A stretch of 64,000 bases of DNA from an uncultured Alphaproteobacteria bacterium (GTDB taxonomy: Bacteria > Pseudomonadota > Alphaproteobacteria > Rs-D84). Positions within the stretch are counted from its first letter, which is position 1. Every line of letters starts with the position of its first letter. The notes under the pieces were generated by a model. That model had not been told where the DNA came from and made no database searches. It saw nothing but the letters and a program-made list of their open reading frames with translations. This document shows positions 9,912 through 26,515 of the stretch, piece after piece. The position numbers were made by a program, and so were the translations under genes. The stretch spans positions 41,212 through 105,211 of the forward strand of contig CAKQSE010000001.1 of NCBI GenBank assembly GCA_934272785.1, written 5' to 3'.

Positions 9912-10546
9912 ATTGGCCAAAATCAACAGAAATAGGTAAATTTTTATCCAAAGAAAGCTTTTATTCACATGATGCTGTATCGGGGGCGTTACGTCAGGTG
10001 CTGGTGGATGATGTTGAAAAAATTACGATATCGCACCGTTTTGCCAAAGATACATTGAATGTGGACGCTGGTACAGAATTTCCAGAAATATTGGTTTTGC
10101 ATATTAAATTAAAGCGTTGCGCAATCAACGAAAAATTGTTAAACGCCTTGGATAAATCTATCTGTGCCGGATATGTATTGTTTGTATTGGAATATATAGA
10201 TATGCAGTGCGCCAGCATTTCGCATAAAACAATTAATTCAAAGGGCGATAGCGTAATTGATAAACGGTGGACGACCGATTGGATGGATGATTTGAATCTG
10301 GAGTTACATGGAACAACTTTGGATCGGGTATATCAAGATTTAGTTAAACAAATATCCGGTGGGCGCGTGAAAACAACCGATAATAATCTGATGCAGGCGG
10401 TTGAACGCGATATAGAACGGACGAGTCTTGAAAGACAAATCGCCGATTTGGAAAGAAAACTGCAAAATACCGTTCAAGTAAATAAAAAATTTGAAATAAA
10501 AGACCAAATTCGTAAAATAGAGGCGAAAGTAAAGGATTTGTCATGA
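9908..10546 (+). CDS. hypothetical protein (~212 aa), possibly DUF4391-like, coupled to the SNF2 helicase
   Basis: Its ATG overlaps the helicase stop (ATGA) and its stop overlaps the next start, so it is co-transcribed. I recall DUF4391 proteins of this size recurring between a helicase-related protein and Type III mod genes, but I recognise no DUF4391 signature in the sequence itself. Confidence 0.55.
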   Translation: MNWPKSTEIGKFLSKESFYSHDAVSGALRQVLVDDVEKITISHRFAKDTLNVDAGTEFPEILVLHIKLKRCAINEKLLNALDKSICAGYVLFVLEYIDMQCASISHKTINSKGDSVIDKRWTTDWMDDLNLELHGTTLDRVYQDLVKQISGGRVKTTDNNLMQAVERDIERTSLERQIADLERKLQNTVQVNKKFEIKDQIRKIEAKVKDLS

Positions 10547-12009
10547 CTGATAAAATCAAATCTATTATTGCCAAAGGTGAAGGATTGACGACAGAGTTTA
10601 AATTGGCGTCAAATAATATTCCAAATAATGTTTATGAAAGTGTATGTGCTTTTTTGAACACTAAGGGTGGCGATATTTTGTTGGGGGTCAATGACAATGG
10701 CCAGGTTGTTGGGGTTGATCCTGATAGTGTATTTAAGATGCGACAAACTTTTTCTGCTGCTATAAATAATAGTCAGATTATAAATCCTCCTTGTTATTCT
10801 CAATTAGAATCATATTCAATTGATAAGAAAACAGTGCTGCACGTTTTTGTGCCAGAATCTTCTCAGGTGCATCGGCATAGAAATAGTATTTATATTCGTA
10901 GCCATGACGGTGATATGAATATCACGGATAACCAAAATTTGGTACACCAACTGTATAATCAGAAAAGTTCATCGTATTCAGAAAATAGGATTTTTGCCGC
11001 TGTTACCATGGATGATTTGCGTATGGATTTATTTGATCGAGTGCGCAAAATTGTTAATGTGCGCAGCAATGGAACACACCAATGGTTGACAATGGATAAT
11101 ATGCACATATTGCAAAATATGGGGTTGTATCAAAAAGATCTAAATACCGGCGAGACGGGCTTTACGTTGGCCTGCATATTGTTATTTGGCAAAGATGAAA
11201 TAATTCATTCGGCGGTGCCTGCATATAAAGTCGATTTAATAAAACGTGTTATAAACAAAGAACGTTATGATGATCGTGAGGTTTTATCAACAAACCTTAT
11301 TGAAACCTATGACAGGGCAATGGCATTTATAGAAAAGCATTTGCCGTCGCCGTTCTATCTGGAAAAAGATGAACGAATAGACCTAAGAAGTATTATATTT
11401 CGTGAAATTATAGCCAATACGATTGTGCACAAGGAGTATTCTGGGGCAGAACCGACAAAAATTGTCATAGAAGAAGACAGAATTTATACAGAAAATAGTA
11501 ATAAACCATATGTAAATGGGTTAATTACTATGAAAAACACTACATCGCATCCAAAAAATCCGAATATAGCGCGTTTTTTTAGAGAATTGGGCCTGGTTGA
11601 AGAGCTGGGATCTGGTTTTACAAAGTTATTTCATTACGCGCGTGCTTATGCAGGTAATGATCCCGTTATACAAGACTTGTCGACCTTCAGGGTTACTTTG
11701 CAAATACCATTTTTTGCGCAAAAACAATCAGATGGTGCGGCTATGGATGCAAATAGTGATCAAGTTACTCAACAAGTTACTCAACAAGTTACTCAACAAG
11801 TTACTCAACAAGTTCAGCGCATTTTGGATTTTTGTGTGGAACCACGATCTGCATTGGAAATTATGAGAATTTTAAACTTGCATGACAGGGCGTATACGAT
11901 GAAACATCTGTTGAAGCCACTGATTCAACGGGGATTGATACAACAAATGTATCCGGATAAACCAAATCATCCATATCAGAAATATGTTACAATCAAAGGA
12001 CGGAAATAA
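10543..12009 (+). CDS. AlbA_2 (Schlafen-like 'divergent AAA') DNA-binding domain protein with C-terminal HATPase_c_4-like domain
   Basis: The N-terminus KSIIAKGEGLTTEFKLASNNIPNNVYESVCAFLNTKGGDILLGVNDNGQVVGVD is the typical AlbA_2 signature, often annotated as RecG-like or transcriptional regulator. The C-terminus has a winged-helix-like tail. It contains an in-frame (QVTQ)n repeat. Confidence 0.75.
   Translation: MTDKIKSIIAKGEGLTTEFKLASNNIPNNVYESVCAFLNTKGGDILLGVNDNGQVVGVDPDSVFKMRQTFSAAINNSQIINPPCYSQLESYSIDKKTVLHVFVPESSQVHRHRNSIYIRSHDGDMNITDNQNLVHQLYNQKSSSYSENRIFAAVTMDDLRMDLFDRVRKIVNVRSNGTHQWLTMDNMHILQNMGLYQKDLNTGETGFTLACILLFGKDEIIHSAVPAYKVDLIKRVINKERYDDREVLSTNLIETYDRAMAFIEKHLPSPFYLEKDERIDLRSIIFREIIANTIVHKEYSGAEPTKIVIEEDRIYTENSNKPYVNGLITMKNTTSHPKNPNIARFFRELGLVEELGSGFTKLFHYARAYAGNDPVIQDLSTFRVTLQIPFFAQKQSDGAAMDANSDQVTQQVTQQVTQQVTQQVQRILDFCVEPRSALEIMRILNLHDRAYTMKHLLKPLIQRGLIQQMYPDKPNHPYQKYVTIKGRK
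11761..11814. repeat. 12-bp tandem repeat caagttactcaa x4 plus a partial copy, in-frame inside the AlbA_2 gene
   Basis: Four perfect copies are seen directly, followed by caagtt. They encode (QVTQ)4. The 12-bp unit keeps the reading frame under copy-number change. Confidence 0.9.
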
Positions 12010-13925
12010 TGATTGAAAAATTGAAAATGGAGCAAAATCCATTGTCTGCCACGGTAGAAAAAATCAAAGAAATTTGCCCTGGTGCGATAACCAGCGATGG
12101 TAAGATAGACTTTGAACAGTTAAAAACGGCCCTTTGCGATGATGTTGCGGCGGATACGATTGAAAAGTACGAATTTACATGGGTTGGGAAAAACGCGGCC
12201 CGGGCAGAGGCCAATCGTCCAATTCGTAAAACCTTGCGTCCGGTTGTAGAGGATTCCAAGAATTGGGATACGACCAAGAATTTGTATATCCAGGGCGACA
12301 ACCTGGATGCATTGAAATTATTGCAGGAATCATATTTGGGCAAGGTAAAAATGATTTACATTGATCCACCATACAATACCGGTAGCGATTTTGTTTATTG
12401 TGATGAATTTGCGGCGGGTTGTGAAGAATACCTGGCTAAAAAGGGGCTGTGTGATGCCGATGGCAACCGTTTGTTTAAAAACACCGAAACAAATGGCCGT
12501 TTCCATTCTGATTGGTGCAGCATGATGTATCCCCGCCTGAAAATTGCCCGTGATTTATTGTCCGATGACGGGGTGATATTTGTTAGCATCAGCGTCAAAG
12601 AATTTGCAACACTAAGAAAAATAATGGATGAAATTTTCGGTGAACAAAACTTTTTATACCATTTATCGGTGGTCAATAAATTGAACGGTAATGATAATTC
12701 TAGCGGTATGATGGAAACAGAAGAATTTTGTTTAATTTATTCCAAAAGTAAAGATACTTTTGAAATGGGGGTTCTGCCTATAGACGATCAGGAAGAGGCA
12801 GATGAGTGGCAACAGGATGAAAAAGGATATTGGAAATTAGGAGGTAGTTTAAAGGCAACAGGTGTAAATGCCCCAAGGGCTGCAAGACCAAATTTGTTTT
12901 TCCCAATCTATATAAATCCACATACCTTAGAATGGTCATTGGACCCGTTAGCTGGTATTGAAGACCAATACCATCTCATTCCCTTGACCGAAGGTCAGGA
13001 AATGAGCTGGTATTGGTCTAAGGGTAGATTTGAGAAAGATAGAAGCGAGGTTATTGTCAAAAAGGTGGGCGACACATATTCTTTGTATAAAAAACAAAGA
13101 CCCCAACTTGGGGATTTGCCTAGCAAACGTGGAAAGACTACTTTCTATAATTCTAGTTATTCTACAGCTAATAGTAATGCTGAGATAAAGAAATTATTTG
13201 AAAACAAAAAAGTATTTGATTATACAAAATCTATGTATTTGATAAAAGATTTTGTGTCATTAGCAAATACTAAACCAGACGATACAGTTCTCGATTTTTT
13301 CTCTGGCTCCGCAACTACTGCGCATGCGGTTATGCAGTTGAATGCCGAAGACGGTGGTAACAGAAGATTTATCATGGTTCAATTACCAGAAAAGTGCGAT
13401 GCAGATTCTGAAGCGTTTAAGGCTGGATATAAAAACATTTGTGAAATCGGTATGGAACGCATCCGGCGTGCGGGTGAAAAAATCAAGGCGGAAAATCCAG
13501 ACAAAGATATAGATATTGGATTCCGTGTTCTGCGTATTGATTCAACCAATATGAAGGATGTTTATTATAAACCATCAGACACAACCCAAAAAACTTTGTT
13601 AGATGCCGTTGATAATATTAAATCAGATCGTTCAGATATGGATTTGTTGTTTGGTGTTATGGTTGATTGTGGGTTGCCGCTGGATATGCCAATTGAAACC
13701 CAAACTTGCGATGGTAAAAAATACTATGTTGTAAACGGTGGTGATTATTTGGTCGCGTGTTTTGAACCGGAGATAACGGAAAAGTTGGTTTATGAAATTG
13801 CTAATTTAAAACCGACAATGGCTGTGTTCCGCGACAGTTCTTTTGCAGATGCCAAAGATAAAGTGAACGTGTCCGAGATATTTAAAAACATTACCGGTCG
13901 TGATGATTGTGTAAAAGTATTATAA
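12009..13925 (+). CDS. mod: Type III restriction-modification system methyltransferase (Mod), beta-class N6-adenine/N4-cytosine MTase
   Basis: Motif IV MIYIDPPYNTGSDF comes before motif I DFFSGSATTAHAV, the beta-class order. Size ~640 aa, and it sits immediately upstream of res with overlapping start/stop codons. Confidence 0.9.
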   Translation: MIEKLKMEQNPLSATVEKIKEICPGAITSDGKIDFEQLKTALCDDVAADTIEKYEFTWVGKNAARAEANRPIRKTLRPVVEDSKNWDTTKNLYIQGDNLDALKLLQESYLGKVKMIYIDPPYNTGSDFVYCDEFAAGCEEYLAKKGLCDADGNRLFKNTETNGRFHSDWCSMMYPRLKIARDLLSDDGVIFVSISVKEFATLRKIMDEIFGEQNFLYHLSVVNKLNGNDNSSGMMETEEFCLIYSKSKDTFEMGVLPIDDQEEADEWQQDEKGYWKLGGSLKATGVNAPRAARPNLFFPIYINPHTLEWSLDPLAGIEDQYHLIPLTEGQEMSWYWSKGRFEKDRSEVIVKKVGDTYSLYKKQRPQLGDLPSKRGKTTFYNSSYSTANSNAEIKKLFENKKVFDYTKSMYLIKDFVSLANTKPDDTVLDFFSGSATTAHAVMQLNAEDGGNRRFIMVQLPEKCDADSEAFKAGYKNICEIGMERIRRAGEKIKAENPDKDIDIGFRVLRIDSTNMKDVYYKPSDTTQKTLLDAVDNIKSDRSDMDLLFGVMVDCGLPLDMPIETQTCDGKKYYVVNGGDYLVACFEPEITEKLVYEIANLKPTMAVFRDSSFADAKDKVNVSEIFKNITGRDDCVKVL

Positions 13926-13943
13926 ACCAAGGGGCGATACACA

Positions 13944-16900
13944 ATGGTCATGAAGATAAAATATAAAAGCCAAGATTTCCAAACAGATGCAACAAATGCC
14001 ATCTGTGATGTATTTGTTGGGCAACCAAAGCAACGTGCGCAATCATACATTTTGGATCCGGGGCAATCAAACGATAATACCAGCGATTTGATTCATTTTG
14101 ATGCGTATGCGAATCCTGCCGTGGCGATAAATAATGATGTTGTATTAGAAAATATAAACAAACAACAAATCAAGGTTGGAATAAAGCCAAACGAAGAACC
14201 AATAAACGGATTGCTTAATTTATCTGTGGAAATGGAAACTGGTACCGGTAAAACATACACTTATACCAAGACGATGTATGAATTGAATAAGCGGTACGGA
14301 TGGTCAAAATTTATCGTTATTGTCCCATCGGTTGCAATTCGTGAAGGGGTGTATAAATCTTTTCAATCAACCGCAGAACACTTCAAAGATCAATACGGCA
14401 AAGCGATAAGATTCTTTATCTATAATTCTGCACATCCAAACGATATTGAAGGTTTCGCAACGGATTCAAACATTCATGTAATGATCATAAATATGCAGGC
14501 ATTTGCATCACGGGGTGAAGATGCACGCCGCATTTATATGAAATTGGATACATTTCGTTCGCGTCGCCCGATCGATGTTTTGGCGGCAACACATCCTATA
14601 TTGATTTTGGATGAACCGCAATCTATGGGTGGGCCGGTTGTTACAAGAATGATGCAGAGTTTTAATCCATTGTTTATATTGCGTTATTCGGCGACGCATC
14701 GTGACCCACATTATATGGTGTATCGTTTGGATGCGCTGGATGCCTATAACCGTAAATTGGTTAAAAAGATCGCGGTTCGTGGTATATCTGTTTTGGGCGA
14801 TACGGCAACAAATGGATATATTTATGTATCAAAAATCAATGTATTTCCAAACAAAAACCCCACGGTTACGATGGAAATAGATTATCAAAACGCAACACAA
14901 ATTACCAAAAGAACGTTGAATTTTGAACATGGCGACAATTTGTATGACAGATCTAACAGATTGGAAGAATATAAAGATCGCTGGGTTATAACCGATATTG
15001 ATGCACGTGATGATTCAGTGCACTTTGAAAATGGTACAGTATTGCATGTCGGTGATGGTGTCGGTAATATGAACGAAGAACAAATTCGTCGTATTCAGAT
15101 TCGTGAAACAATCAACGCCCATTTGGAACAAGAAGAAAGGTTGTTTGAACGTGGCATCAAAGTATTATCCTTGTTCTTTATTGACGAAGTAGCCAAATAT
15201 CGTACCGCCGATGATCAGGGTGGTGTCTACGCCCAGATGTTCGAACAGGAATATGTTGCCGCAGTACAAGATCGGTTGTCACAACTGGGGTTGAATCCAG
15301 AATATGAAAAATTCCTGAGGGGGACAGATGCACATAAATCGCATGCTGGATATTTCTCCATTGATAAAAAGGGTAAAATCCAAGACAGTAAAGTTGGGCG
15401 TTCAGAAACTTCTGCCAGCAAAGAGGGTGATGTCGCCGCATACGATTTGATTATGAAGGATAAAGAACGCCTGTTATCTCGCGAAGAACCAGTGCGGTTC
15501 ATATTTTCGCACTCTGCATTACGCGAAGGTTGGGATAATCAGAACGTGTTCCAAATTTGCACATTGAAACAAAGCACCAACGATGTGTCCAGGCGGCAAG
15601 AGTTGGGCCGTGGTATGCGTTTGTGTGTAAATCAAAATGGCGATCGTATGGATTATTCTGTTTTGGGCGATAGTATTCATAAGATAAACGTTTTGACAGT
15701 TGTTGCATCTGAAAGTTACGAGGCCTTTGCAAAGGGGTTACAATCTGAATATAACGAAGAATTGAAAAACCGTCCGCGTGTTATAACGCCGCAGTTGTTT
15801 AAACAGGCAATTAGATTAGAAACCGGTGAAACGCATCCGGTGACCGAAGAAGAATCCAGGCGTATCTATAATCATCTCATTCGCAAAAACTACATTGATG
15901 ATAATGGCAATTTAACGCAAGATTTTTATACCGCGAAAACAACTGGTGTGCTGGTCATGCCAGAAGGATTCCCTGCGGATGAAATCATCAGAATAGCAGA
16001 ATCTGTTTATAGGCCGATTGAGATTGAAAATCGCAATAAAACCCGTGTCAATATTGACATCAATAAAAAGAACTTTGCAAAACAAGAATTCCAAGAATTA
16101 TGGAACAGAATCAACAAAAAATCTGCATATACAGTTGATTTTGCATCTGATGAATTGGAAAGAAAAGCAATTGAAAGCCTTAATGATAATCTGCATATAA
16201 CCCCAGTAACGGTCGTAGTAACGGGTGGTTTCATCAAAGAAATAACAGAAAATGGTTTTGTAGATGGCGACCGAGTGGCCAGAAGAACCGTCGTAAAAAC
16301 TGCAGAAGTCGGCTTGAAATATGATCTGATTGGAAAAATAGCAGAAGGGACACAATTAACTAGAAAATGTGTGGCGAATATCTTACGTGGTATTCGTAAA
16401 GAAACCTTTGAACAATTTAAAGCCAATCCGCAAGATTTTATCACCAAGGCGATAGGTTTGATAAACAATGAAAAAGCAACAACGGTTATTGAGCATATAA
16501 CCTATAATCCTGTTGATGACCACTTTGATATGAGTATATTTACCGAGCCAGGGAAGCAGATTTTGGCAGATAAAGCCGTAAAAACAGATAAACATCACAT
16601 TTATAACTATGTGGATGCAGATTCTGATATTGAAAAGAATATGGCAACTGAGCTGGAACATCAAGATGATGTGTGTGTTTATGCCAAATTACCGCGCGGT
16701 TTTTATATAAATACCCCAGTCGGTAAGTATAATCCGGACTGGGCCATTGCATTTAAACAGGGGGCTGTGAAACACGTCTACTTTGTTGCCGAAACCAAGG
16801 GAACAATGGAAACACTGAACTTGAAACCTGTTGAATTGGCAAAAATTAACTGCGCCAAGAAACATTTCCAAGCTATCAGTGGCGATAATGTTAAATATGA

Positions 16901-16946
16901 TGTTGTGGACACTTATGAACATTTGATGGATATTGTAACCAAATAA
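13944..16946 (+). CDS. res: Type III restriction enzyme Res subunit (SF2 helicase + PD-(D/E)xK nuclease)
   Basis: Walker A LSVEMETGTGKTYTYTKT, a motif II variant ILILDEPQSMGG, and a C-terminal nuclease motif YNPDW…VYFVAETKG (PD…ExK). Size ~1000 aa, typical for Type III Res. Confidence 0.9.
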   Translation: MVMKIKYKSQDFQTDATNAICDVFVGQPKQRAQSYILDPGQSNDNTSDLIHFDAYANPAVAINNDVVLENINKQQIKVGIKPNEEPINGLLNLSVEMETGTGKTYTYTKTMYELNKRYGWSKFIVIVPSVAIREGVYKSFQSTAEHFKDQYGKAIRFFIYNSAHPNDIEGFATDSNIHVMIINMQAFASRGEDARRIYMKLDTFRSRRPIDVLAATHPILILDEPQSMGGPVVTRMMQSFNPLFILRYSATHRDPHYMVYRLDALDAYNRKLVKKIAVRGISVLGDTATNGYIYVSKINVFPNKNPTVTMEIDYQNATQITKRTLNFEHGDNLYDRSNRLEEYKDRWVITDIDARDDSVHFENGTVLHVGDGVGNMNEEQIRRIQIRETINAHLEQEERLFERGIKVLSLFFIDEVAKYRTADDQGGVYAQMFEQEYVAAVQDRLSQLGLNPEYEKFLRGTDAHKSHAGYFSIDKKGKIQDSKVGRSETSASKEGDVAAYDLIMKDKERLLSREEPVRFIFSHSALREGWDNQNVFQICTLKQSTNDVSRRQELGRGMRLCVNQNGDRMDYSVLGDSIHKINVLTVVASESYEAFAKGLQSEYNEELKNRPRVITPQLFKQAIRLETGETHPVTEEESRRIYNHLIRKNYIDDNGNLTQDFYTAKTTGVLVMPEGFPADEIIRIAESVYRPIEIENRNKTRVNIDINKKNFAKQEFQELWNRINKKSAYTVDFASDELERKAIESLNDNLHITPVTVVVTGGFIKEITENGFVDGDRVARRTVVKTAEVGLKYDLIGKIAEGTQLTRKCVANILRGIRKETFEQFKANPQDFITKAIGLINNEKATTVIEHITYNPVDDHFDMSIFTEPGKQILADKAVKTDKHHIYNYVDADSDIEKNMATELEHQDDVCVYAKLPRGFYINTPVGKYNPDWAIAFKQGAVKHVYFVAETKGTMETLNLKPVELAKINCAKKHFQAISGDNVKYDVVDTYEHLMDIVTK

Positions 16947-16973
16947 TAATTCTTTAATAACTTGACTTATACC

Positions 16974-17008
16974 CCTTTGTAAGCAGTAATTGTGCAACCT
17001 TACAAAGG
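16974..17008. other. perfect 10-bp-stem hairpin (cctttgtaag / cttacaaagg, 15-nt loop) at the junction between res and the phage-like remnant
   Basis: Seen directly. There is no T-tract, and the 3' arm supplies aaaggag as an RBS for the downstream ORF. Confidence 0.5.
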
Positions 17009-17015
17009 AGTAATT

Positions 17016-17219
17016 ATGGGGTATAAAAATCCGCCGGTGGAATATCGGTTTCGACCCGGACAATCGGGCAATCCATACGGGCGAATGGGGCGCCGTGTGT
17101 CCGAACACGAACGGCAATGTCTGTTGCGTATGATGGTGGATGCGATATGCGATTATCGTCCGAAAAACAACACGCGTTTACGCAAAATTATGGGGATATT
17201 GCATGAAACAATTGACTAG
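17016..17219 (+). CDS. DUF5681-like phage-associated small protein (probable fragment)
   Basis: MGYKNPPVEYRFRPGQSGNPYGRMGR: the P-x-E-Y-R-F-x-P-G-Q-S-G-N-P-x-G-R motif is characteristic of DUF5681 proteins found next to phage terminase or recombinase genes. Only ~67 aa. Confidence 0.4.
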   Translation: MGYKNPPVEYRFRPGQSGNPYGRMGRRVSEHERQCLLRMMVDAICDYRPKNNTRLRKIMGILHETID

Positions 17220-17646
17220 TATGCCGAGCAGTTTCTCGGATTTGCAAAAGATGTCTAAAACCGCACGGACCGCCCTTTGGGCGAGATATGTGCCACATTC
17301 GTTTGCGGGACAAAACAAGGTCCTGTGGTACTATATTCAGTGCGAGCAAATGGATGTACGCATACTGCCGAAACATATGGTTAAATTGCGTAAGTACAGG
17401 GATAAGCCTGCTGATTGTATGACACGGGTTTGTAAAACAAAATATCGTTTGGCAACTGGCACGACTATAACCAAGTCTTTTCGTGGTGTGGCGCATCGCG
17501 TGATGGTCTGTGATGACGGCATGTTTGAATATAATGGTCAGAAATTCAGAACACTATCTGGTGTGGCGAGCAGTATCGCAGGGATAAAAATATCCGGCCC
17601 CGACTTCTTTGGTTTTAGCAAAAGGAAAAAGAATGCCGAAAATTAG
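17203..17646 (+). CDS. DUF2924 domain protein (recombinase-associated)
   Basis: The C-terminus …FEYNGQKFRTLSGVASSIAGIKISGPDFFGF matches the DUF2924 signature, and the gene lies immediately upstream of a large serine recombinase, as in alphaproteobacterial prophages. Confidence 0.65.
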   Translation: MKQLTSMPSSFSDLQKMSKTARTALWARYVPHSFAGQNKVLWYYIQCEQMDVRILPKHMVKLRKYRDKPADCMTRVCKTKYRLATGTTITKSFRGVAHRVMVCDDGMFEYNGQKFRTLSGVASSIAGIKISGPDFFGFSKRKKNAEN

Positions 17647-19198
17647 GTGTGCGATTTACACACGAAAATCAACCGAACACGGTCTGGAATTAGAATTTAA
17701 TTCACTGCAAAATCAAGAAGAGGCATGTAAGGCGTATATTGCATCCCAATCATTTAATGGTTGGGAATATTATAAAACATATACCGATGCGGCTATATCA
17801 GGCGGGACAATGTCGCGCCCTGCATTACAGCAGATGTAGGATGATATGTCGCGTGGCCTGATAAATGTGGTTGTTGTATACAAGGTTGATCGTCTGTCAC
17901 GTTCTATTCTGGATTTTCACAGTATGATGAAATACTTTGAAAAATATAATGCCAATTTCGTATCTATTACCCAGTCGTTTGATACATCAAATTCTATGGG
18001 CAAATTGACATTAAATATGCTGCTGTCGTTTGCTCAGTTTGAACGTGAAGTTGCGTCTGAACGCGTGCGCGATAAAATCCGCGCCAGCAAGTCCAAAGGT
18101 ATGTGGCTGGGCGGCGCGCCACGCTTGGGCTATGATTTGAAAGATAAAAAACTGATAATAAATGAACAAGAGGCCGAACAAATCCGTGATTTATTTAACG
18201 CATATCTGCGCCTGGGCAGTGTGTCGGCCCTGATTGACTATGCGGCAGATAAAAATATATTTAATAAACAGTGGAAATCAAAGCGCGGTGCCGTATGGGG
18301 CGGGCGGGAACTCACCAAACATTCGCTGCATCGCATTTTGCGGGACAAAATTTATATCGGAATGATAGAAAGCAAGGTCGCTAATATCTGCGCCCCGGGC
18401 GAGCATCAGGCTATTATAGACACAGAAACATTTAATCACGTGCAGGAAATGCTGACCAAAAATGGCAACGATAAGACTGCACGCGGTGGCTCGCCAAACC
18501 TGATTACGGGAAAGTTATTCAATGCGGCGGGTGTAAAATTTACCAATCAGCGTACCTGTGGTGCGGGCAAGACGCCAAAATATTATTACGCCACACGGGG
18601 ATTTTATCTGCCAGCGCCGGAATTGGATACGATTGTTGCGCGTGCCATAAATGACTTTATGGATTCCGATATGTCAAACCTTGGTGACGGTATTGCAACG
18701 ACATTGAAACGTATTGATACGCACACCATGGAGTATGATGCGCGGCGTAAATTCATTCGCACAATGATACGCAAGGTCGTGTACACTGAAAATCAGATAA
18801 TGATATTTATAAACCTCAGTGCTGGTGAATTACAAAAATATACGGGCGATACTTTTAATCAAAATTCTAAGCCTATGGAATACACGACAGACGCCGATGG
18901 GGTAATCATAAAATGCCCGGTATTTTTGAAAAAGTACAGCAAGACAAACTCGCTGCTAAACATCGTTGATAACAACCATTTAATCGTGCGTGCTTTTGCT
19001 ACGGCGTTTCACTATCGTGATGTGTACGAGCGCGGGCGCACCGTCCCGGAAATTGCAACAGATGAACACGCATCAGAAACCACAGTGCGGCGATATCTGA
19101 AACTGGCGTATATCAATCCGCAAATCATAAATGATGTTTTAGATGCAAAAACGCCATATCGTGTGGACGACCTGTTCCGAATATCGCCAATGTTTTGA
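17609..19198 (+). pseudogene. large serine recombinase interrupted by an in-frame TAG at 17837-17839
   Basis: ORF 17609-17839 encodes the N-terminal catalytic region (IYTRKSTE…RPALQQM*). ORF 17846-19198 continues in the same frame with the resolvase core DRLSRS…ANFVSITQSFDTS…FAQFEREVASERVRDKI and the large-recombinase/zinc-ribbon region. Both ORFs are in frame 2, and the STDEQ box has degenerated to STEHGLE. Confidence 0.75.
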
Positions 19199-19370
19199 CG
19201 CATTCCGCCACTATAAAAAACGGGGTTGTATGTAACCCCGCTTGTTTTTGCGGTTTGGTGTCTTGCGCCGCCACATACAAAATATCAAAACAAAAAATAC
19301 CCCGAAAATCACGCAGAATTCCGGGGTGTTAAAATCACAATTAAACCATAGTGATTTCAATAAATTATCT

Positions 19371-19444
19371 TGGTTGGGGCGCACGGATTCGAACCATGAT
19401 AAAGAGAACCAAAATCTCTTGTCCTACCATTAGACGACACCCCA
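19371..19444 (-). tRNA. tRNA-Gln (anticodon UUG)
   Basis: The reverse complement TGGGGTGTCGTCTAATGGTAGGACAAGAGATTTTGGTTCTCTTTATCATGGTTCGAATCCGTGCGCCCCAACCA folds as a cloverleaf with anticodon stem AGAGA/TCTCT, loop TTTTGGT, T-arm CATGG-TTCGAAT-CCGTG and acceptor TGGGGTG/CGCCCCA. Confidence 0.85.
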
Positions 19445-19656
19445 AAGGCGTCTATGATTATAAATATCTTTTGATTTTTTGCAATAATAAAAATTTAATA
19501 TTTTGAATATGCAATTAAAAAAATCTGATTTTTTTGCTATTTTATACTTGCATTAAACTGTTTAGAATATATAATTATTCAGTTTTTTAATGATTAAAAG
19601 CCTTTTAATTATTAAAACGCTTACCATTACATTTTGCCGCAAAAGGGGCACGAGAT

Positions 19657-20106
19657 ATGGCACGTAAAGAATTTATTCGTTTGTTGGAATCAAATATTTT
19701 GACATTGGACCGGTTGGCGGAACGCCTGCGCAAGGAACCGTTGGATGCGGGACTGTATCCCAAAAACCAGATGACGGTTTTGGTGCGGTTGCATATGGGC
19801 GGCCGTGCGCGATTGAAAGAAATCGCACGTCGTGAATTGGTCCCGACGCCAAATTTATGTGCGACGTTTCGCAAACTGGAACGTGACGGGTTGGTAACGC
19901 GGACGGTTGATGAAAACGATCGTCGTAACACATGGTATGAATGCACGCCGGCGGGTGAAAAATTGGCGGACAAGGCACTGGAAATGTTTCGTTGTGCAAT
20001 ATCACGTCTGTTTGAAAATATTGCCCCCGCGGACGAGGTGGCATTGACAGGTGCACTGAAAACAATGAACGAAATACTGACAAAGATGGAGATAAAGCAT
20101 GTTTAA
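19657..20106 (+). CDS. MarR-family transcriptional regulator
   Basis: Winged-HTH MarR pattern …LKEIARRELVPTPNLCATFRKLERDGLVTRTVDENDRRNTWYECTPAGEK. It is the first gene of the efflux operon and follows an AT-rich promoter region. Confidence 0.8.
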   Translation: MARKEFIRLLESNILTLDRLAERLRKEPLDAGLYPKNQMTVLVRLHMGGRARLKEIARRELVPTPNLCATFRKLERDGLVTRTVDENDRRNTWYECTPAGEKLADKALEMFRCAISRLFENIAPADEVALTGALKTMNEILTKMEIKHV

Positions 20107-21427
20107 AATCGGACGTATTACCGCGATTTTCTGTGGTGTGATTGCGGGCGCGACAAATGCGAATGCAATGGATTTGTCGTTGGCCACGGCGGTGGACAAG
20201 ATTGTTACCGAATCCCAGGATTTAAAAAAGGCCGATGCAAATGTTAAAAAGGCCCAGGCGTCCCTGGATGCGGCAAATGCCAATCGTTGGTTCACGGTTG
20301 ATGGTACGGTGACGTATATGAATCTGATAAATGTTAAAAAGCCGTTCGAATCATATGGAGTGGATTTAACCCCGGAAATGGGGGGCGTGTTGGCACGCGT
20401 CTTGGGCACAGACATTGATCATATAGAGGTTCCTGATAATATCTTTATGGCGGGGGTTACGGTAACCCAGCCGATTTATACATTTGGTAAAATTGGCAAT
20501 GCCGTTGACGGTGTGCGCAGTGCGATAAAGATGGCCGATGCCAGTCGTGAAATGACCTTGCGCGCGGTGAAATACAGCGCGGCAGACATTTATTGGACGG
20601 CGAAAATGACCGATGAAATTGTTAAAATTGCGCAACAGGATTTGAATTCTGCCCGCAATGCACAAAAGAGTTTAACGTCCGCCGGTCGTGCCAATCGCAG
20701 CAATTTGGTTAAAATTGAATCTGATATCGCGGCCAAAGAAATCAATCTGTCTGACGCTGAATTCAATCGCGACACCGCGCACAGAATGCTGAAAATCTTG
20801 GCCGGAATTGATATGAACGAAGAATTGAATTTAACCGATGATTTTCCGGCAACGTTTTCTGATTTAAGCGCGGGCGAATTGAAATCAACGCCCCAGTGGC
20901 GCGTCCTGGACGAACAGGTCATGATGTATGAAAAACAGGCCCGGTCCCAGCGTGCGGGTGGATACCCGACATTGGCGGCGGTTGGTTCATACAACTATCT
21001 GGCGATGGACCAGGATTTTAACAATATGTTTAATCGCACGAATTCCCAGTCTGCATATTGGGGGCTGGCGTTACAGGTGCCGATTTTCAGTGGTGGTCTG
21101 CATCGCGCAAATGCCACGGCCCAGGCCATGAATGCCGAGGCCGCCCGCCAAGACCTGGACAAGGCGAAAAAGATGACCAGCGAAGAATATTCGCGCGCAA
21201 TTGATAAGTACAATCACCTGCGTGGGAATCTGAAAACGTTGGAAAATGCGCGTAACCTGGCGGCCAAGGCATATGGTATATCCAGTGATCGTTTCGCCGC
21301 GGGTCAAACATCCGCGGTCGAATTGGCCGAGGTTTCTGCCGGTCTGTATCAATTGGATATGGCGTTGTTAAATGCAAAATACAACATACTGATGTCTGCG
21401 GAATCGGTGAAAAAGTTGGGTGAATAA
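20099..21427 (+). CDS. TolC-like outer membrane efflux protein (OMF family)
   Basis: N-terminal signal peptide, then two OEP-like repeats with coiled-coil periodicity, ~440 aa, positioned in front of the MFP and RND genes. Confidence 0.75.
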   Translation: MFKIGRITAIFCGVIAGATNANAMDLSLATAVDKIVTESQDLKKADANVKKAQASLDAANANRWFTVDGTVTYMNLINVKKPFESYGVDLTPEMGGVLARVLGTDIDHIEVPDNIFMAGVTVTQPIYTFGKIGNAVDGVRSAIKMADASREMTLRAVKYSAADIYWTAKMTDEIVKIAQQDLNSARNAQKSLTSAGRANRSNLVKIESDIAAKEINLSDAEFNRDTAHRMLKILAGIDMNEELNLTDDFPATFSDLSAGELKSTPQWRVLDEQVMMYEKQARSQRAGGYPTLAAVGSYNYLAMDQDFNNMFNRTNSQSAYWGLALQVPIFSGGLHRANATAQAMNAEAARQDLDKAKKMTSEEYSRAIDKYNHLRGNLKTLENARNLAAKAYGISSDRFAAGQTSAVELAEVSAGLYQLDMALLNAKYNILMSAESVKKLGE

Positions 21428-22061
21428 TATGAAGAATACTGTAAATAAACTGATGTCAAAAATCAATGAACTGGTTGCGTTTATGAAAACGCCACGTGGT
21501 CGCAAGTACACGTCAATCGGCGCGGTTGGAATCATTATTTTGTGGACCGTGTTTCGTTTTTCCATGATTGGTATTGAACACGCGCGCGTTGTGTTTAATG
21601 CATCGCGTGATGCCGCAGAAAATGGTGTCCCGGTTGTTACAATCACAATGTCACGCACGTCGGGCGATTTACGTGAACCAATCGCGGTCAAGGATAACCG
21701 TGCCTATGTTTCGTCGGGTCGTATAGATAAATTTGGTGCCGGCCAGCATGTTGGTGATGGCGTAATCGTATCTGTATCTGGGGGAATTGATTTGGATTCG
21801 GGTATGCATGTTATTCGCACGCGTGGTGTGGCCGATGGCCTGCAATATGCCCAGTATCGCGCCACGGGATACTTTGTGCCGGTCTATGCCATAAACAACG
21901 GCGTCGTTATGGTTGCCGATGGTGACGTTGCACGTGCGCGCAATGTTCGTGTCGGTCGCCAAGACGCCGAAAACGCATTGGTTGAATCGGGCCTGCGCGA
22001 TGGTGATATTGTCATTTTGACGCGTGTGTCTGATGGCGACAAGATTCAAATTAAACAGTAA
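21420..22061 (+). CDS. efflux RND periplasmic adaptor (membrane fusion protein), unusually short (213 aa)
   Basis: N-terminal transmembrane anchor, then beta-rich lipoyl-like and beta-barrel segments (VVTITMSRTSGDL…, GDGVIVSVSGGIDLD…). No segment long enough to form an alpha-helical hairpin. It sits between the OMF and RND genes. Confidence 0.55.
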   Translation: MNNMKNTVNKLMSKINELVAFMKTPRGRKYTSIGAVGIIILWTVFRFSMIGIEHARVVFNASRDAAENGVPVVTITMSRTSGDLREPIAVKDNRAYVSSGRIDKFGAGQHVGDGVIVSVSGGIDLDSGMHVIRTRGVADGLQYAQYRATGYFVPVYAINNGVVMVADGDVARARNVRVGRQDAENALVESGLRDGDIVILTRVSDGDKIQIKQ

Positions 22062-22082
22062 AACAGTGGGGAGATTTCAGTC

Positions 22083-25000
22083 ATGTTAAAATTTTTCGTC
22101 CGCAGACCTGTTACAACAGTTATGTTTGTTTTGTTATGGGTTGCGTTGGGTTTGGTATCATTTCCAAAGATGAACGTTGAACGCACGCCGTCATTGGATT
22201 TCCCAATGGTTACGGCAACATTTATATATCCTGGTGCGTCGCCTGCGGAAATTGAATCCCAGGTTATTAAAAAGGCCGAAGACGCGATGTCCGAGGTTGC
22301 CGGATTAAAAAAGATTACGTCCCAGGCATATGAAAACGGTGGATACGTGATGGCGGAATTCAACCTGGGGGTGAACGTCAACGATAAATCCAGCGAGGTT
22401 AAATCCAAGATTGACGCACTGTCGTCTGAATTCCCCGACGCGTTAAAGCAGCCTGTTGTGGAAAAATTAAACCCGTTACAGGAATCGGTGGTTGATATTG
22501 TTCTGCGTGGTGCATCGCCCCGCGATATGCAGGAATATGTCGATAACACATTGTCGAACAAAATCACCGCAATCAAGGGCGTGGCCAGCGTGTCCGTATT
22601 CGGTGGCGAAGACAGAGCGGTTCGCGTTGAAATGAATCCAGAACTGATGGCGGCGCGTGGCGCAACCGTGATGGATGTTGTCGCGGCATTGGGCGCGCGC
22701 AATCTGAACGTGCCGGGCGGTAAAATTGAAACATCGGCAAATGCATCTAATGTTCGTTTTATTGGTGAATTTGAATCGGTTGATGAAATCGCGAATCTGC
22801 ATCTGACCACGGTCGAAGGTGCACGTTTCAAATTGTCTGATGTTGCGACCGTAACCGACGCCGCGCGTGATATCGAAACCGGTGCGCGTTACAATGGTGA
22901 ACCGGTTGTTATCGCATCTGTGGTCAAGGCATCTGATGGTAACGCAATTAAAATTTCCCAGGCACTGCGCAAAAAAATGCCAGAATTACAGGCCGATATG
23001 CAGGCGCGTTTCCCGAACGCAACGATGGAAATTATTTCTGATTCATCGACCGCGGTATCTGATGAAACCAACAGCACAATTTGGGGTATTATCCAGGGTA
23101 TTATATTTACAGTCTTGGTATTGTTGGCGTTCACGCGTAACTGGCGTTCAACAATTATCGCAGGTGTCGTGATTCCTGCGTCGTTGATTGCTGGATTCTT
23201 CTTTATGAACGGCAGTGGATTTACAATCAATGCAATGACATTGTTGGCGTATTCATCGGCGTTGGGAACGTTGGTGTCAAACGCGATTATTATGATTGAA
23301 TCTGCATTGCAAGAAATGCGCGCGGGCAAAGACCCAGAAACGGCCGCAATTGATGGCACGAAAAAGGTCGGTGTATCTGTTCTGGCTGGTGTTGGAACAA
23401 ACGTCGTGGTGTTCTTGCCGTTGGCGTTTATGAGTGGTATTGTCGGCCAATTCATGGTCCAGTTTGGTTTGACCGTTGTGTATCTGACACTGTTGTCATT
23501 GCTGTTCAGTTTTACACTGACCCCGATGATGATTGCCAAGATTTTGCGTCTGACCGGCACCCAGAATACCAAGAAAAAATCCGCCACATCCAAAGATGCG
23601 GCTCCATCACCCGCAATGGTGAAATTGCGCAAATGGTTTGATTTCCAGCATTCACATCCGTGGCGTGTGATTGGGTTGGCGGTTGCCATATTCTTGGGCA
23701 CGACAATGTTGATGAAATTCGTCGGTAACGAATTTGCACCATCAACCGATGATAATGAAATCACAATTACGGCACGTGCGCCGATGGGGGCCACGTTCGA
23801 GAAATCGCGCAGCATTTCCGAACAGATAGAGGCCGAATTGAAACAGTTCCCCGAAGTCACAGCAACATCTGTGAAAATCGGTGAACGTGGTTTGCAAAAT
23901 ATCACGGTCAAGGTTGACCTGGTTGATCGTGCGGACCGCCGTCTGACCGACAAAGAATTGGCGCGTCGTATGTTGCCACGCCTGGCGGCGATTCCGGACG
24001 TTGAAATCCAGATTCGCGCGGGCTCATCTATGTCGTCGTCTGTGTCGTCTGATATCGTCTTGAACATCAAGGGCGAAGATGATGAAAAACGTGAGGCATA
24101 TGCAACGCGCGCCCTGGAATTGATAAACCAGATTCCAGAAGTGCAAAGTGCCGTTCGTGCCCAGCAGACGCCGGGACGTGAAATCCGCTTTGTCCCAGAT
24201 GAAAACAAAATGAATTTCTGGGGCGTCAAGAATTCTTATGCGGGTTCAACACTGCGCACCGCGTTGTATGGTAACGACGATTACAAATACAAAGAACGCG
24301 GCGAAGAATACCCGATTATTCTGGAATTTGCACGTCCGTTTAAAACCGCCGAAATGTTTGACAATGTGTATGTAAATTCACAAAAGGGTATGGTTGCATT
24401 GTCATCACTGGGTAAAATTGAAAACGTGACTGCAACCCCGAACATCAGTCGTCTGGGCAAAAGCAGAATTACCGAAATTGACATCAATATTGGTAAATCA
24501 ACACTGGGCCCGGTCCAGGCCAAGATTCAATCTGCATTGGATTCAATGGCGTGGGATATGGGTTACAGCGCGGAATTCGGTGGTATGTCTGAAATCCAGG
24601 ACGAAACAACCGGCGAAATCGGCCAGGCGTTCTTGCTGGCGACAATATTAACGTTTATGTTGCTGGCCGCGATTATGAATTCGTTGGCGCATCCGTTCAC
24701 GATTGCGACATCAATTCTGACATCGTTCGCAGGCGTGTTTGTCGTAATGTTCTTGACCGGTGCAACGATGAATGTTGGTGCGATGTTGGCGTTCGTTATG
24801 TTGGTCGGATTGGTGGTGAACAATAACATTCTGGTGTTGGAACCGACAATCGGACGTATCAATAATGGCGAAAGCGCGCGCGATGCACTGTGGGCGGAAA
24901 TGAACGATAAACGTTACATGATTCTGATGACGTCTATTGCGGTTATGACCGGTATGGTGCCCCAGTTGTGGTCTGTTGACGGTATGAAGGTCGCGATGGC

Positions 25001-25118
25001 CGCCGTTATGATTGGTGGTATGTTGGCCAGTTTGATATTTACATTCACACTGACGCCGGCGTTGTTTTTCTTGATAGAACGCGCGCGCGAAAAATTATCG
25101 GGCAAGAAAGCCAAATAA
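22083..25118 (+). CDS. RND efflux transporter permease (AcrB/AcrD/CzcA-like)
   Basis: 1011 aa and 12-TM architecture. MLKFFVRRPVTTVMFVLLWVALGLVSFPKMNVERTPSLDFPMVTATFIYPGASPAEIESQV is the canonical RND N-terminus. Confidence 0.9.
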   Translation: MLKFFVRRPVTTVMFVLLWVALGLVSFPKMNVERTPSLDFPMVTATFIYPGASPAEIESQVIKKAEDAMSEVAGLKKITSQAYENGGYVMAEFNLGVNVNDKSSEVKSKIDALSSEFPDALKQPVVEKLNPLQESVVDIVLRGASPRDMQEYVDNTLSNKITAIKGVASVSVFGGEDRAVRVEMNPELMAARGATVMDVVAALGARNLNVPGGKIETSANASNVRFIGEFESVDEIANLHLTTVEGARFKLSDVATVTDAARDIETGARYNGEPVVIASVVKASDGNAIKISQALRKKMPELQADMQARFPNATMEIISDSSTAVSDETNSTIWGIIQGIIFTVLVLLAFTRNWRSTIIAGVVIPASLIAGFFFMNGSGFTINAMTLLAYSSALGTLVSNAIIMIESALQEMRAGKDPETAAIDGTKKVGVSVLAGVGTNVVVFLPLAFMSGIVGQFMVQFGLTVVYLTLLSLLFSFTLTPMMIAKILRLTGTQNTKKKSATSKDAAPSPAMVKLRKWFDFQHSHPWRVIGLAVAIFLGTTMLMKFVGNEFAPSTDDNEITITARAPMGATFEKSRSISEQIEAELKQFPEVTATSVKIGERGLQNITVKVDLVDRADRRLTDKELARRMLPRLAAIPDVEIQIRAGSSMSSSVSSDIVLNIKGEDDEKREAYATRALELINQIPEVQSAVRAQQTPGREIRFVPDENKMNFWGVKNSYAGSTLRTALYGNDDYKYKERGEEYPIILEFARPFKTAEMFDNVYVNSQKGMVALSSLGKIENVTATPNISRLGKSRITEIDINIGKSTLGPVQAKIQSALDSMAWDMGYSAEFGGMSEIQDETTGEIGQAFLLATILTFMLLAAIMNSLAHPFTIATSILTSFAGVFVVMFLTGATMNVGAMLAFVMLVGLVVNNNILVLEPTIGRINNGESARDALWAEMNDKRYMILMTSIAVMTGMVPQLWSVDGMKVAMAAVMIGGMLASLIFTFTLTPALFFLIERAREKLSGKKAK

Positions 25119-25200
25119 TTAAAACGGGGCATTTGCCCCGTTTTTTTATTGCCCCCTGCGCAAAGCCTGTTATAATACGCCCGAAAAATATCAAAAGGAT

Positions 25201-25809
25201 TTGTATATGTTGATGAAACAAGACATTGTTGTGTTTGATTTTGATGGAACGTTATCGGCGCATGATTCCAATGTGGAATTTGGTCGGTATTGTTTTCGCC
25301 ACTCGCTGCGGCCATGGTTGTTTTTGCCGTTGATGGGTGTCGCGGCGATTGCGCGGATGTTCAATCCATCGGGGCTGTGGTGGCGCGAAAGCATGCGTCG
25401 CTTTTTAACCGCGGACATGGTTGCGCGTTTTGCACCTGATTTTATAAAGCAACATAAAATGGAACGCTTTGGCTGGGCCAAGGAACAGGTCGCTGCCGAA
25501 CGTGCGGCGGGGCGTCGTGTTGTTCTGGTTTCGGCCAGCACAGATTATCTGGTCCCGCAATTGGTGCGTGATATTAAATTTGATGCGGTTTTAACATCCC
25601 AGATGGATGCCGCGCGGCCGTGGAAATATAAATTCCTGTGCTGGGGCCGGAACAAGGTTGTTGCGCTGGATACATGGGCGGCGAAAAATAAAATAATCCC
25701 GCGTGTCGTGCGCAGTTATTCCGACAGCCCATCTGATATGCCGATGATGGAAATTGCCGCCGAACAGGTATGGGTCGACGCAAAAACAGGTTTGCGAAAA
25801 CATGCCTAA
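25201..25809 (+). CDS. HAD-IB family hydrolase (phosphoserine-phosphatase-like)
   Basis: Motif I VVFDFDGTL and downstream HAD motifs, in a cap-containing IB-like layout. Confidence 0.6.
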   Translation: MYMLMKQDIVVFDFDGTLSAHDSNVEFGRYCFRHSLRPWLFLPLMGVAAIARMFNPSGLWWRESMRRFLTADMVARFAPDFIKQHKMERFGWAKEQVAAERAAGRRVVLVSASTDYLVPQLVRDIKFDAVLTSQMDAARPWKYKFLCWGRNKVVALDTWAAKNKIIPRVVRSYSDSPSDMPMMEIAAEQVWVDAKTGLRKHA

Positions 25810-25843
25810 GGGAAAATGAATAAAAATCCGTTATAATCATCGC

Positions 25844-26101
25844 ATGGCTATAACGGATTTTTTATATGATTTTAGTGTCGGCGTTGCGTGCGCATTGGTC
25901 GGCGCGTTGATAAGTATGATGCTGTCGCGTCGCAAAACGCGGCGTTTGACCAGTGAAATTGTCTTGCGACGTCAAGACCTGGAAACACTGCGCCTGGAAA
26001 ATAATCGATTATTGGAAACGATAAAAACGCGCGAAAACGAAATTCTGGAATTACAGAAACAGATTCTGGACGCCCACCCCAAACCCAAACGAAAAAAATA
26101 G
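25844..26101 (+). CDS. hypothetical membrane-anchored coiled-coil protein
   Basis: N-terminal hydrophobic helix followed by a heptad coiled coil (…LETLRLENNRLLETIKTRENEILELQKQIL). I recognise no family. Confidence 0.4.
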   Translation: MAITDFLYDFSVGVACALVGALISMMLSRRKTRRLTSEIVLRRQDLETLRLENNRLLETIKTRENEILELQKQILDAHPKPKRKK

Positions 26102-26515
26102 AGAGAGTAGGGAATAAGAGAGCAGAGTATAGAGAGCAATGAAAAGTGAGTAAGTGACAGAGTGATAAAGTGATACAGTTTTAGAATAGAAAACTTAAAA
26201 ACTTGTCATTCCTGCGCAGGCAGGAATAGGGTCTTTAAAATTACTTCTGTTCACTGTTGCACAAATATTCAGCAAAAATGGCCTGATAACCGTTATCAAA
26301 TAACACCGCAACATTCTGTGTTTGGCTCGCGTTCGCTCGCACTGCACGGTCCCTATTCCTGCCTTTGCCCACCCACGGAATTTATCAATTCCGCGGGGCC
26401 CGGAGCAGGAATGACAAGTTTTTAAGTTCTCTATTCTAAAACTATATCACTTTATCACTCTGTCACTTACTCACTTTATCATTGCTCTCTGCTCTCTACA
26501 CTCTGCTCTCTATAA
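26101..26515. repeat. MITE-like palindromic repeat element (copy A) with ~40-bp terminal inverted repeats
   Basis: Seen directly: left arm gagagagtagggaataagagagcagagtatagagagcaatgaaaagtgagtaagtgacagagtgataaagtgatacag, and right arm …ctgtatcactttatcactctgtcacttactcactttatcattgctctctgctctctacactctgctctcta. Internal hairpins gtcattcctgcgcaggcaggaataggg and cccacccacggaatttatcaattccgcggggcccgg are shared with the elements at 60.2 and 62 kb. Confidence 0.75.

Follow-up and report, generated by a model that had tools for sequence, protein, structure and literature searches.

A restriction island at a tRNA-Gln gene of an uncultured alphaproteobacterium, with a large serine recombinase interrupted by a single stop codon

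In a 64,000-nucleotide stretch of DNA from an uncultured Alphaproteobacteria bacterium (assembly GCA_934272785.1, contig CAKQSE010000001.1; hereafter the window), an island of 13,262 bp with a low guanine plus cytosine (GC) content is located at positions 6117-19378, at the 3' end of a tRNA-Gln gene. It very probably represents a tRNA-Gln-associated integrative island whose serine integrase was broken recently, namely by a single base change that converted a leucine codon of the large serine recombinase (LSR) gene into a TAG stop codon. The boundaries of the island, its empty site, the point mutation, the intact relatives and the identity of the cargo were all read directly from the window and from related contigs and loci (L numbers in the following). 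An earlier note on this DNA had proposed the integration module of a tRNA-Gln island with a restriction-modification (RM) cassette, which agrees with the tRNA gene at 19371-19444, the DUF2924 gene, a 9-bp repeat and the type III Mod and Res genes.

The island differs from the host in composition, its GC fraction being 0.386 across 6117-19378 compared to 0.483-0.492 in the flanks. At both of its borders (6108-6116 and 19370-19378) the 9-bp direct repeat TTGGTTGGG is found, which corresponds to the final 8 nucleotides of tRNA-Gln, including the CCA, plus one base; the duplicated tRNA 3' end that the earlier note had advised to look for at the far border is hence present. The window reads ...TTTAATTT-TTGGTTGGG-TACAAGGTG... 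at the left and ...AATAAATTATC-TTGGTTGGG-GCGCACGG... at the right junction. Among the conspecific contigs, which were picked by their encoding exactly the MarR protein of the window, L006 and L009 (flanks 97-98% identical) represent empty sites, in which window positions 1-6116 directly adjoin positions 19363-26142 with a 14-bp overlap in the contig alignment, and from which the whole 13.3 kb is missing as a single unit. The attB site rebuilt from attL and attR of the window equals the real sequence of these empty sites, read directly as ...GGCCGGTTTAATTTT-TGGTTGGG-GCGCACGGATTCGAACC..., and it follows that the island comprises 13,262 bp bounded by the 9-bp TTGGTTGGG. The comparison with island-free relatives, likewise recommended beforehand, thereby provided exact boundaries. 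In sequencing reads, the junctions to be expected are ...AATAAATTATC-TTGGTTGGG-TACAAGGTGTT... for attP and ...TTTAATTTT-TGGTTGGG-GCGCACGG... for attB. The 3' end of tRNA-Gln points toward the integration module, and the terminator hairpin (Table 1), which stands directly 3' of the tRNA in the empty contigs, now lies about 13 kb away from it.

By analogy with studied LSRs, the island would have been inserted by site-specific recombination between attP and attB, with LSR dimers binding to attP on the excised circle and to attB at the tRNA end, cutting both strands at a dinucleotide inside the 9-bp core, rotating the half-sites and rejoining them. The attB site would span the CCA end of tRNA-Gln and the tRNA terminator, and as attP and attB would share only the 9-bp core, the tRNA would be left intact and the terminator would stay at the left junction. 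The module itself is a translationally coupled operon at the tRNA-proximal end of the island, and in its LSR gene the T to A change splits off a 68-residue piece, so that the catalytic serine is parted from what follows of the catalytic domain. With the LSR cut after residue 68, self-excision should be lost.

That islands of this kind move as units is suggested by relatives in which the same site is occupied. The conspecific contigs L004 and L008 carry an intact 521-amino acid (aa) LSR at this site, together with type I RM cargo, extra hsdS genes and a small resolvase, and the same arrangement is present in L001 and L002, which belong to a different species. Window positions 16958-19444 are 96-100% identical to L001, while the nucleotide identity of the host genes is 71% for MarR and 80% for OEP; a module that is about 97% identical across species with flanks of 71-80% must therefore be moving. 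In L014, an LSR of 92% identity is found at a tRNA-Gln site with another type I RM system and a tyrosine recombinase, and the window is 90.6% identical to it in the right-hand module and 78% identical in about 300 bp of the left end. The homology with L001, L002, L004, L008 and L014 starts no more than 2 bp from position 16958, about 12 bp past the res stop codon, and the left end is kept as well, so that the element is, judged from these alignments, modular, with two conserved ends and exchangeable defence cargo.

One could also imagine that the module is a resident docking platform beside tRNA-Gln, next to which cargo cassettes are exchanged, and that whole islands do not move. The position of the identity break so close behind the last stop codon of the cargo would fit such a scenario, as would the hsdR-hsdM cassette of L001, which also occurs in an unrelated island lacking the module. 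Yet, module and cargo are absent together from the empty sites, the module is far more similar across species than its flanks, and the left end is conserved too, such that homologous exchange between two conserved ends suffices to explain the differing cargo. From our point of view, a docking platform is hence improbable.

As regards the cargo of the mobile island that we favour, all five genes are defence-type, the adjacent Mod and Res genes constitute a type III RM system, and neither virion structural or packaging genes nor any other open reading frame (ORF) of at least 90 aa outside the cargo genes were found. This bears on a further scenario, in which the module would be the last remnant of a decayed prophage whose restriction cassette survived. 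Such a past can be argued from the distant element L017, the cargo of which includes a large terminase, a full-length DUF5681 protein and a ParB-methyltransferase, so that the LSR family has phage or satellite connections, and further from the similarity of the DUF2924 and LSR proteins to phage protein families and from the first 24 residues of the 67-aa ORF, which are common with DUF5681. It is nevertheless decidedly improbable. The junctions are clean with conserved ends on both sides, phage gene fragments are lacking between the cargo genes, and the whole 13.3 kb is absent as one unit from the empty sites. In addition, all three islands that carry this module at tRNA-Gln (those of the window, of L004/L001 and of L014) contain restriction cargo only and measure 10.6 and 13.3 kb in the two cases in which both ends were recovered. 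The earlier statement that no phage structural genes remain is correct insofar as none is present, but the prophage past that it implied is not supported by these three restriction-only islands.

The interrupted gene can be assigned to the LSRs with some detail. The PF00239 Resolvase profile matches over positions 2-55 before and 58-145 after the TAG and is followed by a Recombinase domain (PF07508, E 2.2e-13, profile positions 1-102 of 102). As the Resolvase profile continues across the TAG in the same frame, the two pieces are one gene, which is what had been proposed for the split at 17837-17839. The same proposal had taken the sequence STEHGLE for a decayed catalytic box, and this view has to be abandoned: the motif C-A-I-Y-x-R-K-S-T-E-H-G-L is invariant or nearly so in the intact homologues (alignments of 12 and 42), with K12, S13 and T14 invariant and R11 nearly invariant among the 42. 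Moreover, AIYTRKST of the LSR aligns with AIYTRVST of the solved catalytic domain of TP901-1 integrase (E 4e-24), and the nucleophile Ser13 is therefore in place. The structural model of the LSR further matches the SPbeta, LI, phiC31 and Bxb1 integrases with E-values from 4e-15 to 1e-6.

The lesion itself is a T to A change in the codon TTG of Leu69, a residue that is invariant in the homologue alignments (A2 and A4). In the closest homologue, P0001, which is 97% identical, the codon is TTG and the protein of 521 aa is intact; samples that carry the intact allele are ERZ26859191 and ERZ26858488. The reading frame is interrupted in the window LSR and uninterrupted in P0001 and six other 521-aa proteins, these being the seven intact members of the 90%-identity cluster, in which a split occurs only in the pair of 450 and 68 aa. 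Compared to the intact conspecific copy in L004, the gene differs by 38 synonymous and 17 non-synonymous changes, a ratio close to the 31:13 between two intact copies. In L013, which Logan assembled independently from run ERR7738177, a stretch of 7,615 bp that contains the TAG matches the window at 100% identity. With a single lesion, a normal ratio and the TAG present in an independent assembly, the lesion can be regarded as real, single and recent, and the module, as far as these alignments tell, is a young pseudogene with this one lesion. The term degraded, which had been used for the module, thus applies to one nonsense mutation and not to the 67-aa and DUF2924 genes, which are intact, to the normal STEHGLE motif or to the normal 38:17 ratio.

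Two other explanations of the TAG had been offered with the original description, and neither of them fared well. If the TAG were a sequencing or assembly error, the recombinase would be intact and the island still mobile, which would go along with the intactness of every other cluster member covering the region and with the lack of decay in the rest of the gene; however, the identical Logan assembly argues against it, as do the split products of 450 and 68 aa, which are indexed from records of NCBI, ENA and Logan (3 and 5 contigs, respectively), a substitution is not a typical assembly artefact, and we consider an error very improbable. Extremely improbable is that the TAG is decoded by programmed read-through, a suppressor tRNA or stop reassignment to give the full-length enzyme. 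In favour of decoding, both halves keep one frame and no further damage is seen downstream of the stop. Against it, a leucine codon stands there in every relative including the 97%-identical conspecific copy; 4 of the 40 long ORFs of the window end in TAG, one being a host gene of 1,379 aa and another the DUF2924 gene, which overlaps the LSR gene within this operon; none of the three tRNAs of the window is unusual; and a stop that is not conserved is the signature of mutation and not of recoding.

If the TAG is a genuine mutation, as we conclude, the split LSR is presumably inactive and the island unable to excise itself. The island is hence most likely immobile on its own. An intact relative could, however, act in trans on attL and attR, both of which look intact at the sequence level.

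Several points weigh against the favoured scenario of an integrative island with a recently broken serine integrase. For the zinc-ribbon/coiled-coil domain of canonical LSRs, no Pfam match was obtained in the window LSR; only two cysteines follow residue 290, and the usual cysteine ligands are missing. The model of the LSR has a predicted local distance difference test (pLDDT) score below 50 at residues 278-287 and 305-314, with only short helices there, and contains an extra C-terminal helical region; when it is aligned over the full length by Foldseek, its TM-scores against the integrases of SPbeta and phiC31 are low (0.2). Recombination of attP with attB by this LSR family is proposed by analogy, the evidence from the family itself being the naturally occupied and empty sites. 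The excised circle, that is the attP junction, was not found with two left-arm patterns in JGI metagenome contigs or with one pattern in viral contigs, and these exact-pattern scans returned no further copies of the island either. Lastly, the TAG rests on assemblies that possibly all derive from one sample, and low-level read-through of the TAG could leave some residual activity.

The module comprises a three-gene operon on the plus strand (17016-19198) with overlapping ORFs for a 67-aa protein, a DUF2924 protein and the LSR. For the first of these, the designation as a DUF5681 fragment has to be qualified. A short N-terminal match to DUF5681 (PF18932) does exist, in which residues 10-24 correspond to profile positions 3-17 of 77, but its 22 bits fall below the cut-off of 27.5, whereas a true member in L017 (122 aa) reaches 83.8 bits over positions 1-75; the match to phrog_26239 is similarly confined to residues 1-24. 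The ORF is of full length in close relatives, with 98.5% nucleotide identity to L001 and 97% aa identity to L014, and at least six distant elements, including Elusimicrobia, have a small ORF of 32-45% identity directly upstream of DUF2924. The conservation of its reading frame marks it as a small gene in its own right, with an N-terminal peptide in common with DUF5681, and not as debris. A perfect 10-bp palindrome (CCTTTGTAAG...CTTACAAAGG, at about 16973-17009) covers its ribosome-binding site in a stretch that is 100% identical to L001. As a regulatory element this palindrome was discarded, its folding energy being no better than that of shuffled sequences (z = -0.58).

The second protein is a member of DUF2924 (PF11149), with 65.3 bits at a cut-off of 31.2 over profile positions 37-134 of 135, and also matches phrog_11806 (E 4e-19). 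Its model (pLDDT 77) has a helical N-terminal half and a beta-rich, possibly RAMA-like C-terminal half, and the best meaningful PDB match found by Foldseek is mouse MPND (7ydt), which carries a RAMA domain, with a probability of 0.98 and a root-mean-square deviation of 1.5 A over 46 columns, yet an E-value of 0.5. DUF2924 has been reported as a partial match to the RAMA DNA-binding domain (PMC11342252). We infer that the protein is a DNA-binding accessory factor. A sequence search of the PDB gave WD40-repeat matches only, in which no stretch passed alone, and these were treated as spurious.

A candidate target for such a factor is present in the left island end, where CAGGGAATT occurs five times, with two copies in tandem at a spacing of 11 bp, next an inverted pair and lastly a single copy. 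By our estimate, a cluster like this would arise by chance somewhere in the window with a probability of about 4e-6. In L014, L017, L031, L073, L074 and L062 the array likewise lies 40-220 bp inward of the left repeat, and it persists at an LSR identity of only some 60% and irrespective of how the adjacent gene is oriented. The DUF2924 protein may be the one to bind it. In each of the seven elements that were compared, ACGGT (ACGAT in L062) stands between the array and the core, 21-26 nucleotides away from the core's TGG. A mirror-image ACCGT in the P arm was rejected as its counterpart; its spacing varies between subgroups, and because of this variation the crossover dinucleotide was not assigned. 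A minus-strand ORF that had been perceived by eye at about 6330-6533 was dismissed as well, since the homology with L014 ends at 6408.

One could speculate, and we do so tentatively and with more doubt than confidence, that these elements belong to an LSR family which departs in its working from canonical serine integrases, in that a dedicated DNA-binding partner, the RAMA-like protein of DUF2924 and perhaps also the 67-aa one, would bind to the CAGGGAATT array 65-225 bp inside the P' arm. This would imply arm-type accessory sites and a control of directionality by protein-DNA complexes as in tyrosine integrases. In gut Alphaproteobacteria and Elusimicrobia, the family would further be specialised for tRNA CCA ends (Ser, Tyr, Pro, Val and Gln) and would spread defence islands of 7-14 kb.

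The wider family, with roughly 8,000 homologues, was surveyed in one genome per species, which returned 80 loci. Most of them belong to gut Alphaproteobacteria (Candidatus Enterousia and relatives, 56-62% identity) and some to Elusimicrobia (42-44%). In 76 of the 80, the gene directly before that of the LSR encodes a DUF2924 protein, so that the pairing, which had been put forward as a typical integration module and is also known from Wolbachia phage WO (PMC10299305), is indeed a recurrent one. A tRNA 3' end facing the LSR is found at a distance of up to 4.5 kb in 66 loci, the tRNAs being Ser-GGA, Ser-TGA, Ser-CGA, Tyr, Pro, Val and Gln, and in 8 of the remaining 14 loci the downstream sequence is shorter than 1.5 kb. 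When 51 loci were searched automatically for repeats at the left end, 17 hits resulted, several of which were plainly chance 9-mers, and repeats were used only if backed by the repeat array or at least 13 bp long. Among the loci that include the far end, elements of 7-14 kb bounded by an 8-20 bp repeat of the tRNA 3' end are those of L017, L031, L062, L073 and L074. As cargo, the family carries restriction enzymes, methyltransferases and also a helicase-nuclease of 1,429 aa. The pairing with DUF2924, the targeting of tRNA CCA ends and the repeat array are noteworthy, but they do not amount to a categorical novelty.

Table 1. Features of the island and its borders, in window coordinates
Feature	Position	Strand	Evidence or remark
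tRNA-Gln terminator hairpin, host (B) arm of attL	6058-6126	minus	32-nt inverted repeat I1
attL core TTGGTTGGG, left repeat copy	6108-6116		overlap of alignment blocks vs L006/L009 and junction reading
Conserved left island end (P' arm), ACGGT at 6130-6134	6117-6408		78% identical to L014 left end
Five CAGGGAATT repeats, four direct and one inverted, candidate accessory-protein sites	6183-6341		
HKD nuclease + Snf2 helicase	6657-9911	plus	PADLOC PDLC01075 'HKD+Snf2' E 1.5e-113, full length; Pfam SNF2-rel_dom, Helicase_C
DUF4391 protein	9890-10546	plus	Pfam PF14335 E 1.6e-43
Schlafen/AlbA_2 + HATPase_c_4 + Fic-like_C protein	10543-12009	plus	Pfam
Type III methyltransferase (Mod)	12009-13925	plus	PADLOC MTase_III E 1.5e-204
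Type III restriction enzyme (Res)	13944-16946	plus	PADLOC REase_III E 1.7e-291; Pfam ResIII + RE_endonuc
Start of conserved module, operon leader	16958-17015	plus	100% identical to L001
67-aa ORF, N-terminal motif common with DUF5681	17016-17219	plus	17-nt overlap with DUF2924 start
DUF2924 protein	17203-17646	plus	Pfam E 8.8e-18; 14-nt overlap with LSR start
LSR N-terminal fragment, 68 aa, catalytic Ser13	17633-17836	plus	
In-frame TAG, T to A at 17838 in invariant Leu69 codon TTG	17837-17839	plus	base-by-base alignment with L001
LSR remainder: rest of catalytic domain, Recombinase domain, C-terminal domains	17840-19198	plus	
Right island end (P arm)	19199-19369		97.1% identical to L001; host DNA past tRNA only 70-80%
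Terminator-like hairpin, two-way, after LSR gene	19218-19243		
attR core TTGGTTGGG, right repeat copy, last 8 nt of tRNA-Gln + 1 nt	19370-19378		junction sequences
tRNA-Gln(ttg), intact	19371-19444	minus	ARAGORN; Rfam 57.7 bits; 100% identical to L001

Some further observations concern the cargo and its exchange. The hsdR-hsdM pair of L001 (1181-5836) is 88.7% identical at the nucleotide level to positions 10001-14656 of L094, an unrelated defence island (McrBC, KAP NTPase, Dcm) without the LSR module, and the exchange of restriction cassettes among islands hence does not depend on the integrase. L094 had been reached by way of an HsdR cluster representative, when the left junction of the type I island was sought, and was rejected for that purpose. 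Several hsdS genes in both orientations are found at L001 5866-9301, L004 4347-7277 and L014 1512-4822, adjoining the small resolvase in L001 and L004 and the tyrosine recombinase in L014, a layout as expected for the shuffling of specificity subunits. In the Schlafen/AlbA_2 gene of the window, a 12-nucleotide tandem repeat (CAAGTTACTCAA, 4-5 copies, 11754-11814) encodes QVTQ repeats, the length of which might vary among strains.

The attachment site itself hosts other small inserts in conspecific and related contigs. One of about 450 bp (L005 9270-9714, also in L010 and L003) encodes an 80-aa GIY-YIG protein (Pfam E 4.7e-15), and others of about 120-190 bp are devoid of ORFs (L007 6760-6880, L073 1112-1272 and L062 4357-4535). 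At their start, these inserts repeat the 3' fragment of the tRNA and continue with ATTCCCTCGG...CTGCGG, and they carry a second terminator copy. It seems that the tRNA 3' end is a hotspot, used by two or more kinds of element that are not related to each other. On the minus strand, from the tRNA 3' end into the island (19296-19340), a short GC-rich hairpin (CCCCG...CGGGG) is followed by a T-run and could stand in for the terminator lost by the tRNA; the consensus scan made no call there.

Elsewhere in the window, positions 26125-26425, between a HAD-family gene and rmuC, are absent or rearranged in all conspecific contigs and give small inverted BLAST matches, and this points to a further variable spot. 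The integration module occurs only once in the window, and for the exact protein of the left-flank gene (5170-6033) no database record was obtained.

Overall, what had been described as a degraded module is now an exactly delimited island with known attL, attR and attB sites and one datable inactivating mutation, and it is as such of use to annotation and to work on the fixation of defence islands in their hosts. Taken by itself, it is a clear yet fairly ordinary case of a mobile element stuck in its host. The survey adds to this a coherent and abundant serine integrase family in uncultured gut bacteria, characterised by the DUF2924 partner, the insertion at tRNA CCA ends and common element ends with swapped restriction systems. 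Should the intact enzymes function as predicted, they would provide natural attP/attB pairs with conserved tRNA targets as well as a test case for a serine integrase that uses accessory DNA sites.

Compared to known systems, the window LSR resembles the phage LSRs TP901-1, A118/LI, SPbeta SprA, phiC31 and Bxb1 in the Y-x-R-x-S motif with the catalytic serine, the Recombinase domain, the position of the gene at one end of the element and the short identity between attP and attB (9 bp in this case). It differs from them in lacking a Pfam zinc ribbon and the usual cysteine ligands and in having extra C-terminal helices, and its family differs in being preceded by DUF2924 and in targeting tRNA 3' ends. 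Elements of serine recombinases have been described in a review as inserting within protein-coding genes, whereas tRNA 3' ends are the habit of tyrosine recombinases (PMC5704250). The island shares with tyrosine-integrase islands of the Islander/TIGER type the insertion at a tRNA 3' end with the tRNA kept, the direct repeats, the integrase gene beside the tRNA, the low-GC defence cargo and the occurrence of occupied and empty sites among strains; unlike in those islands, the enzyme is a serine recombinase and the repeat has only 9 bp, covering just the CCA end.

Serine recombinases with a tRNA gene as attB are not without precedent, as the Ralstonia filamentous phage phiRSM uses tRNA-Ser (PMC4471427) and the Paracoccus phage vB_PamS_Pami6 uses tRNA-Met (PMC6536676). 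The enzyme of phiRSM is, however, of the small resolvase/invertase type, and neither phage has been described with a DUF2924 partner or as part of a family of small defence islands. Lastly, in Wolbachia phage WO, with a genome of about 65 kb, the recombinase gene is located immediately downstream of that for a DUF2924 protein (PMC10299305). The gene order is the same in the window, where the pair serves a 13-kb island with restriction cargo only.

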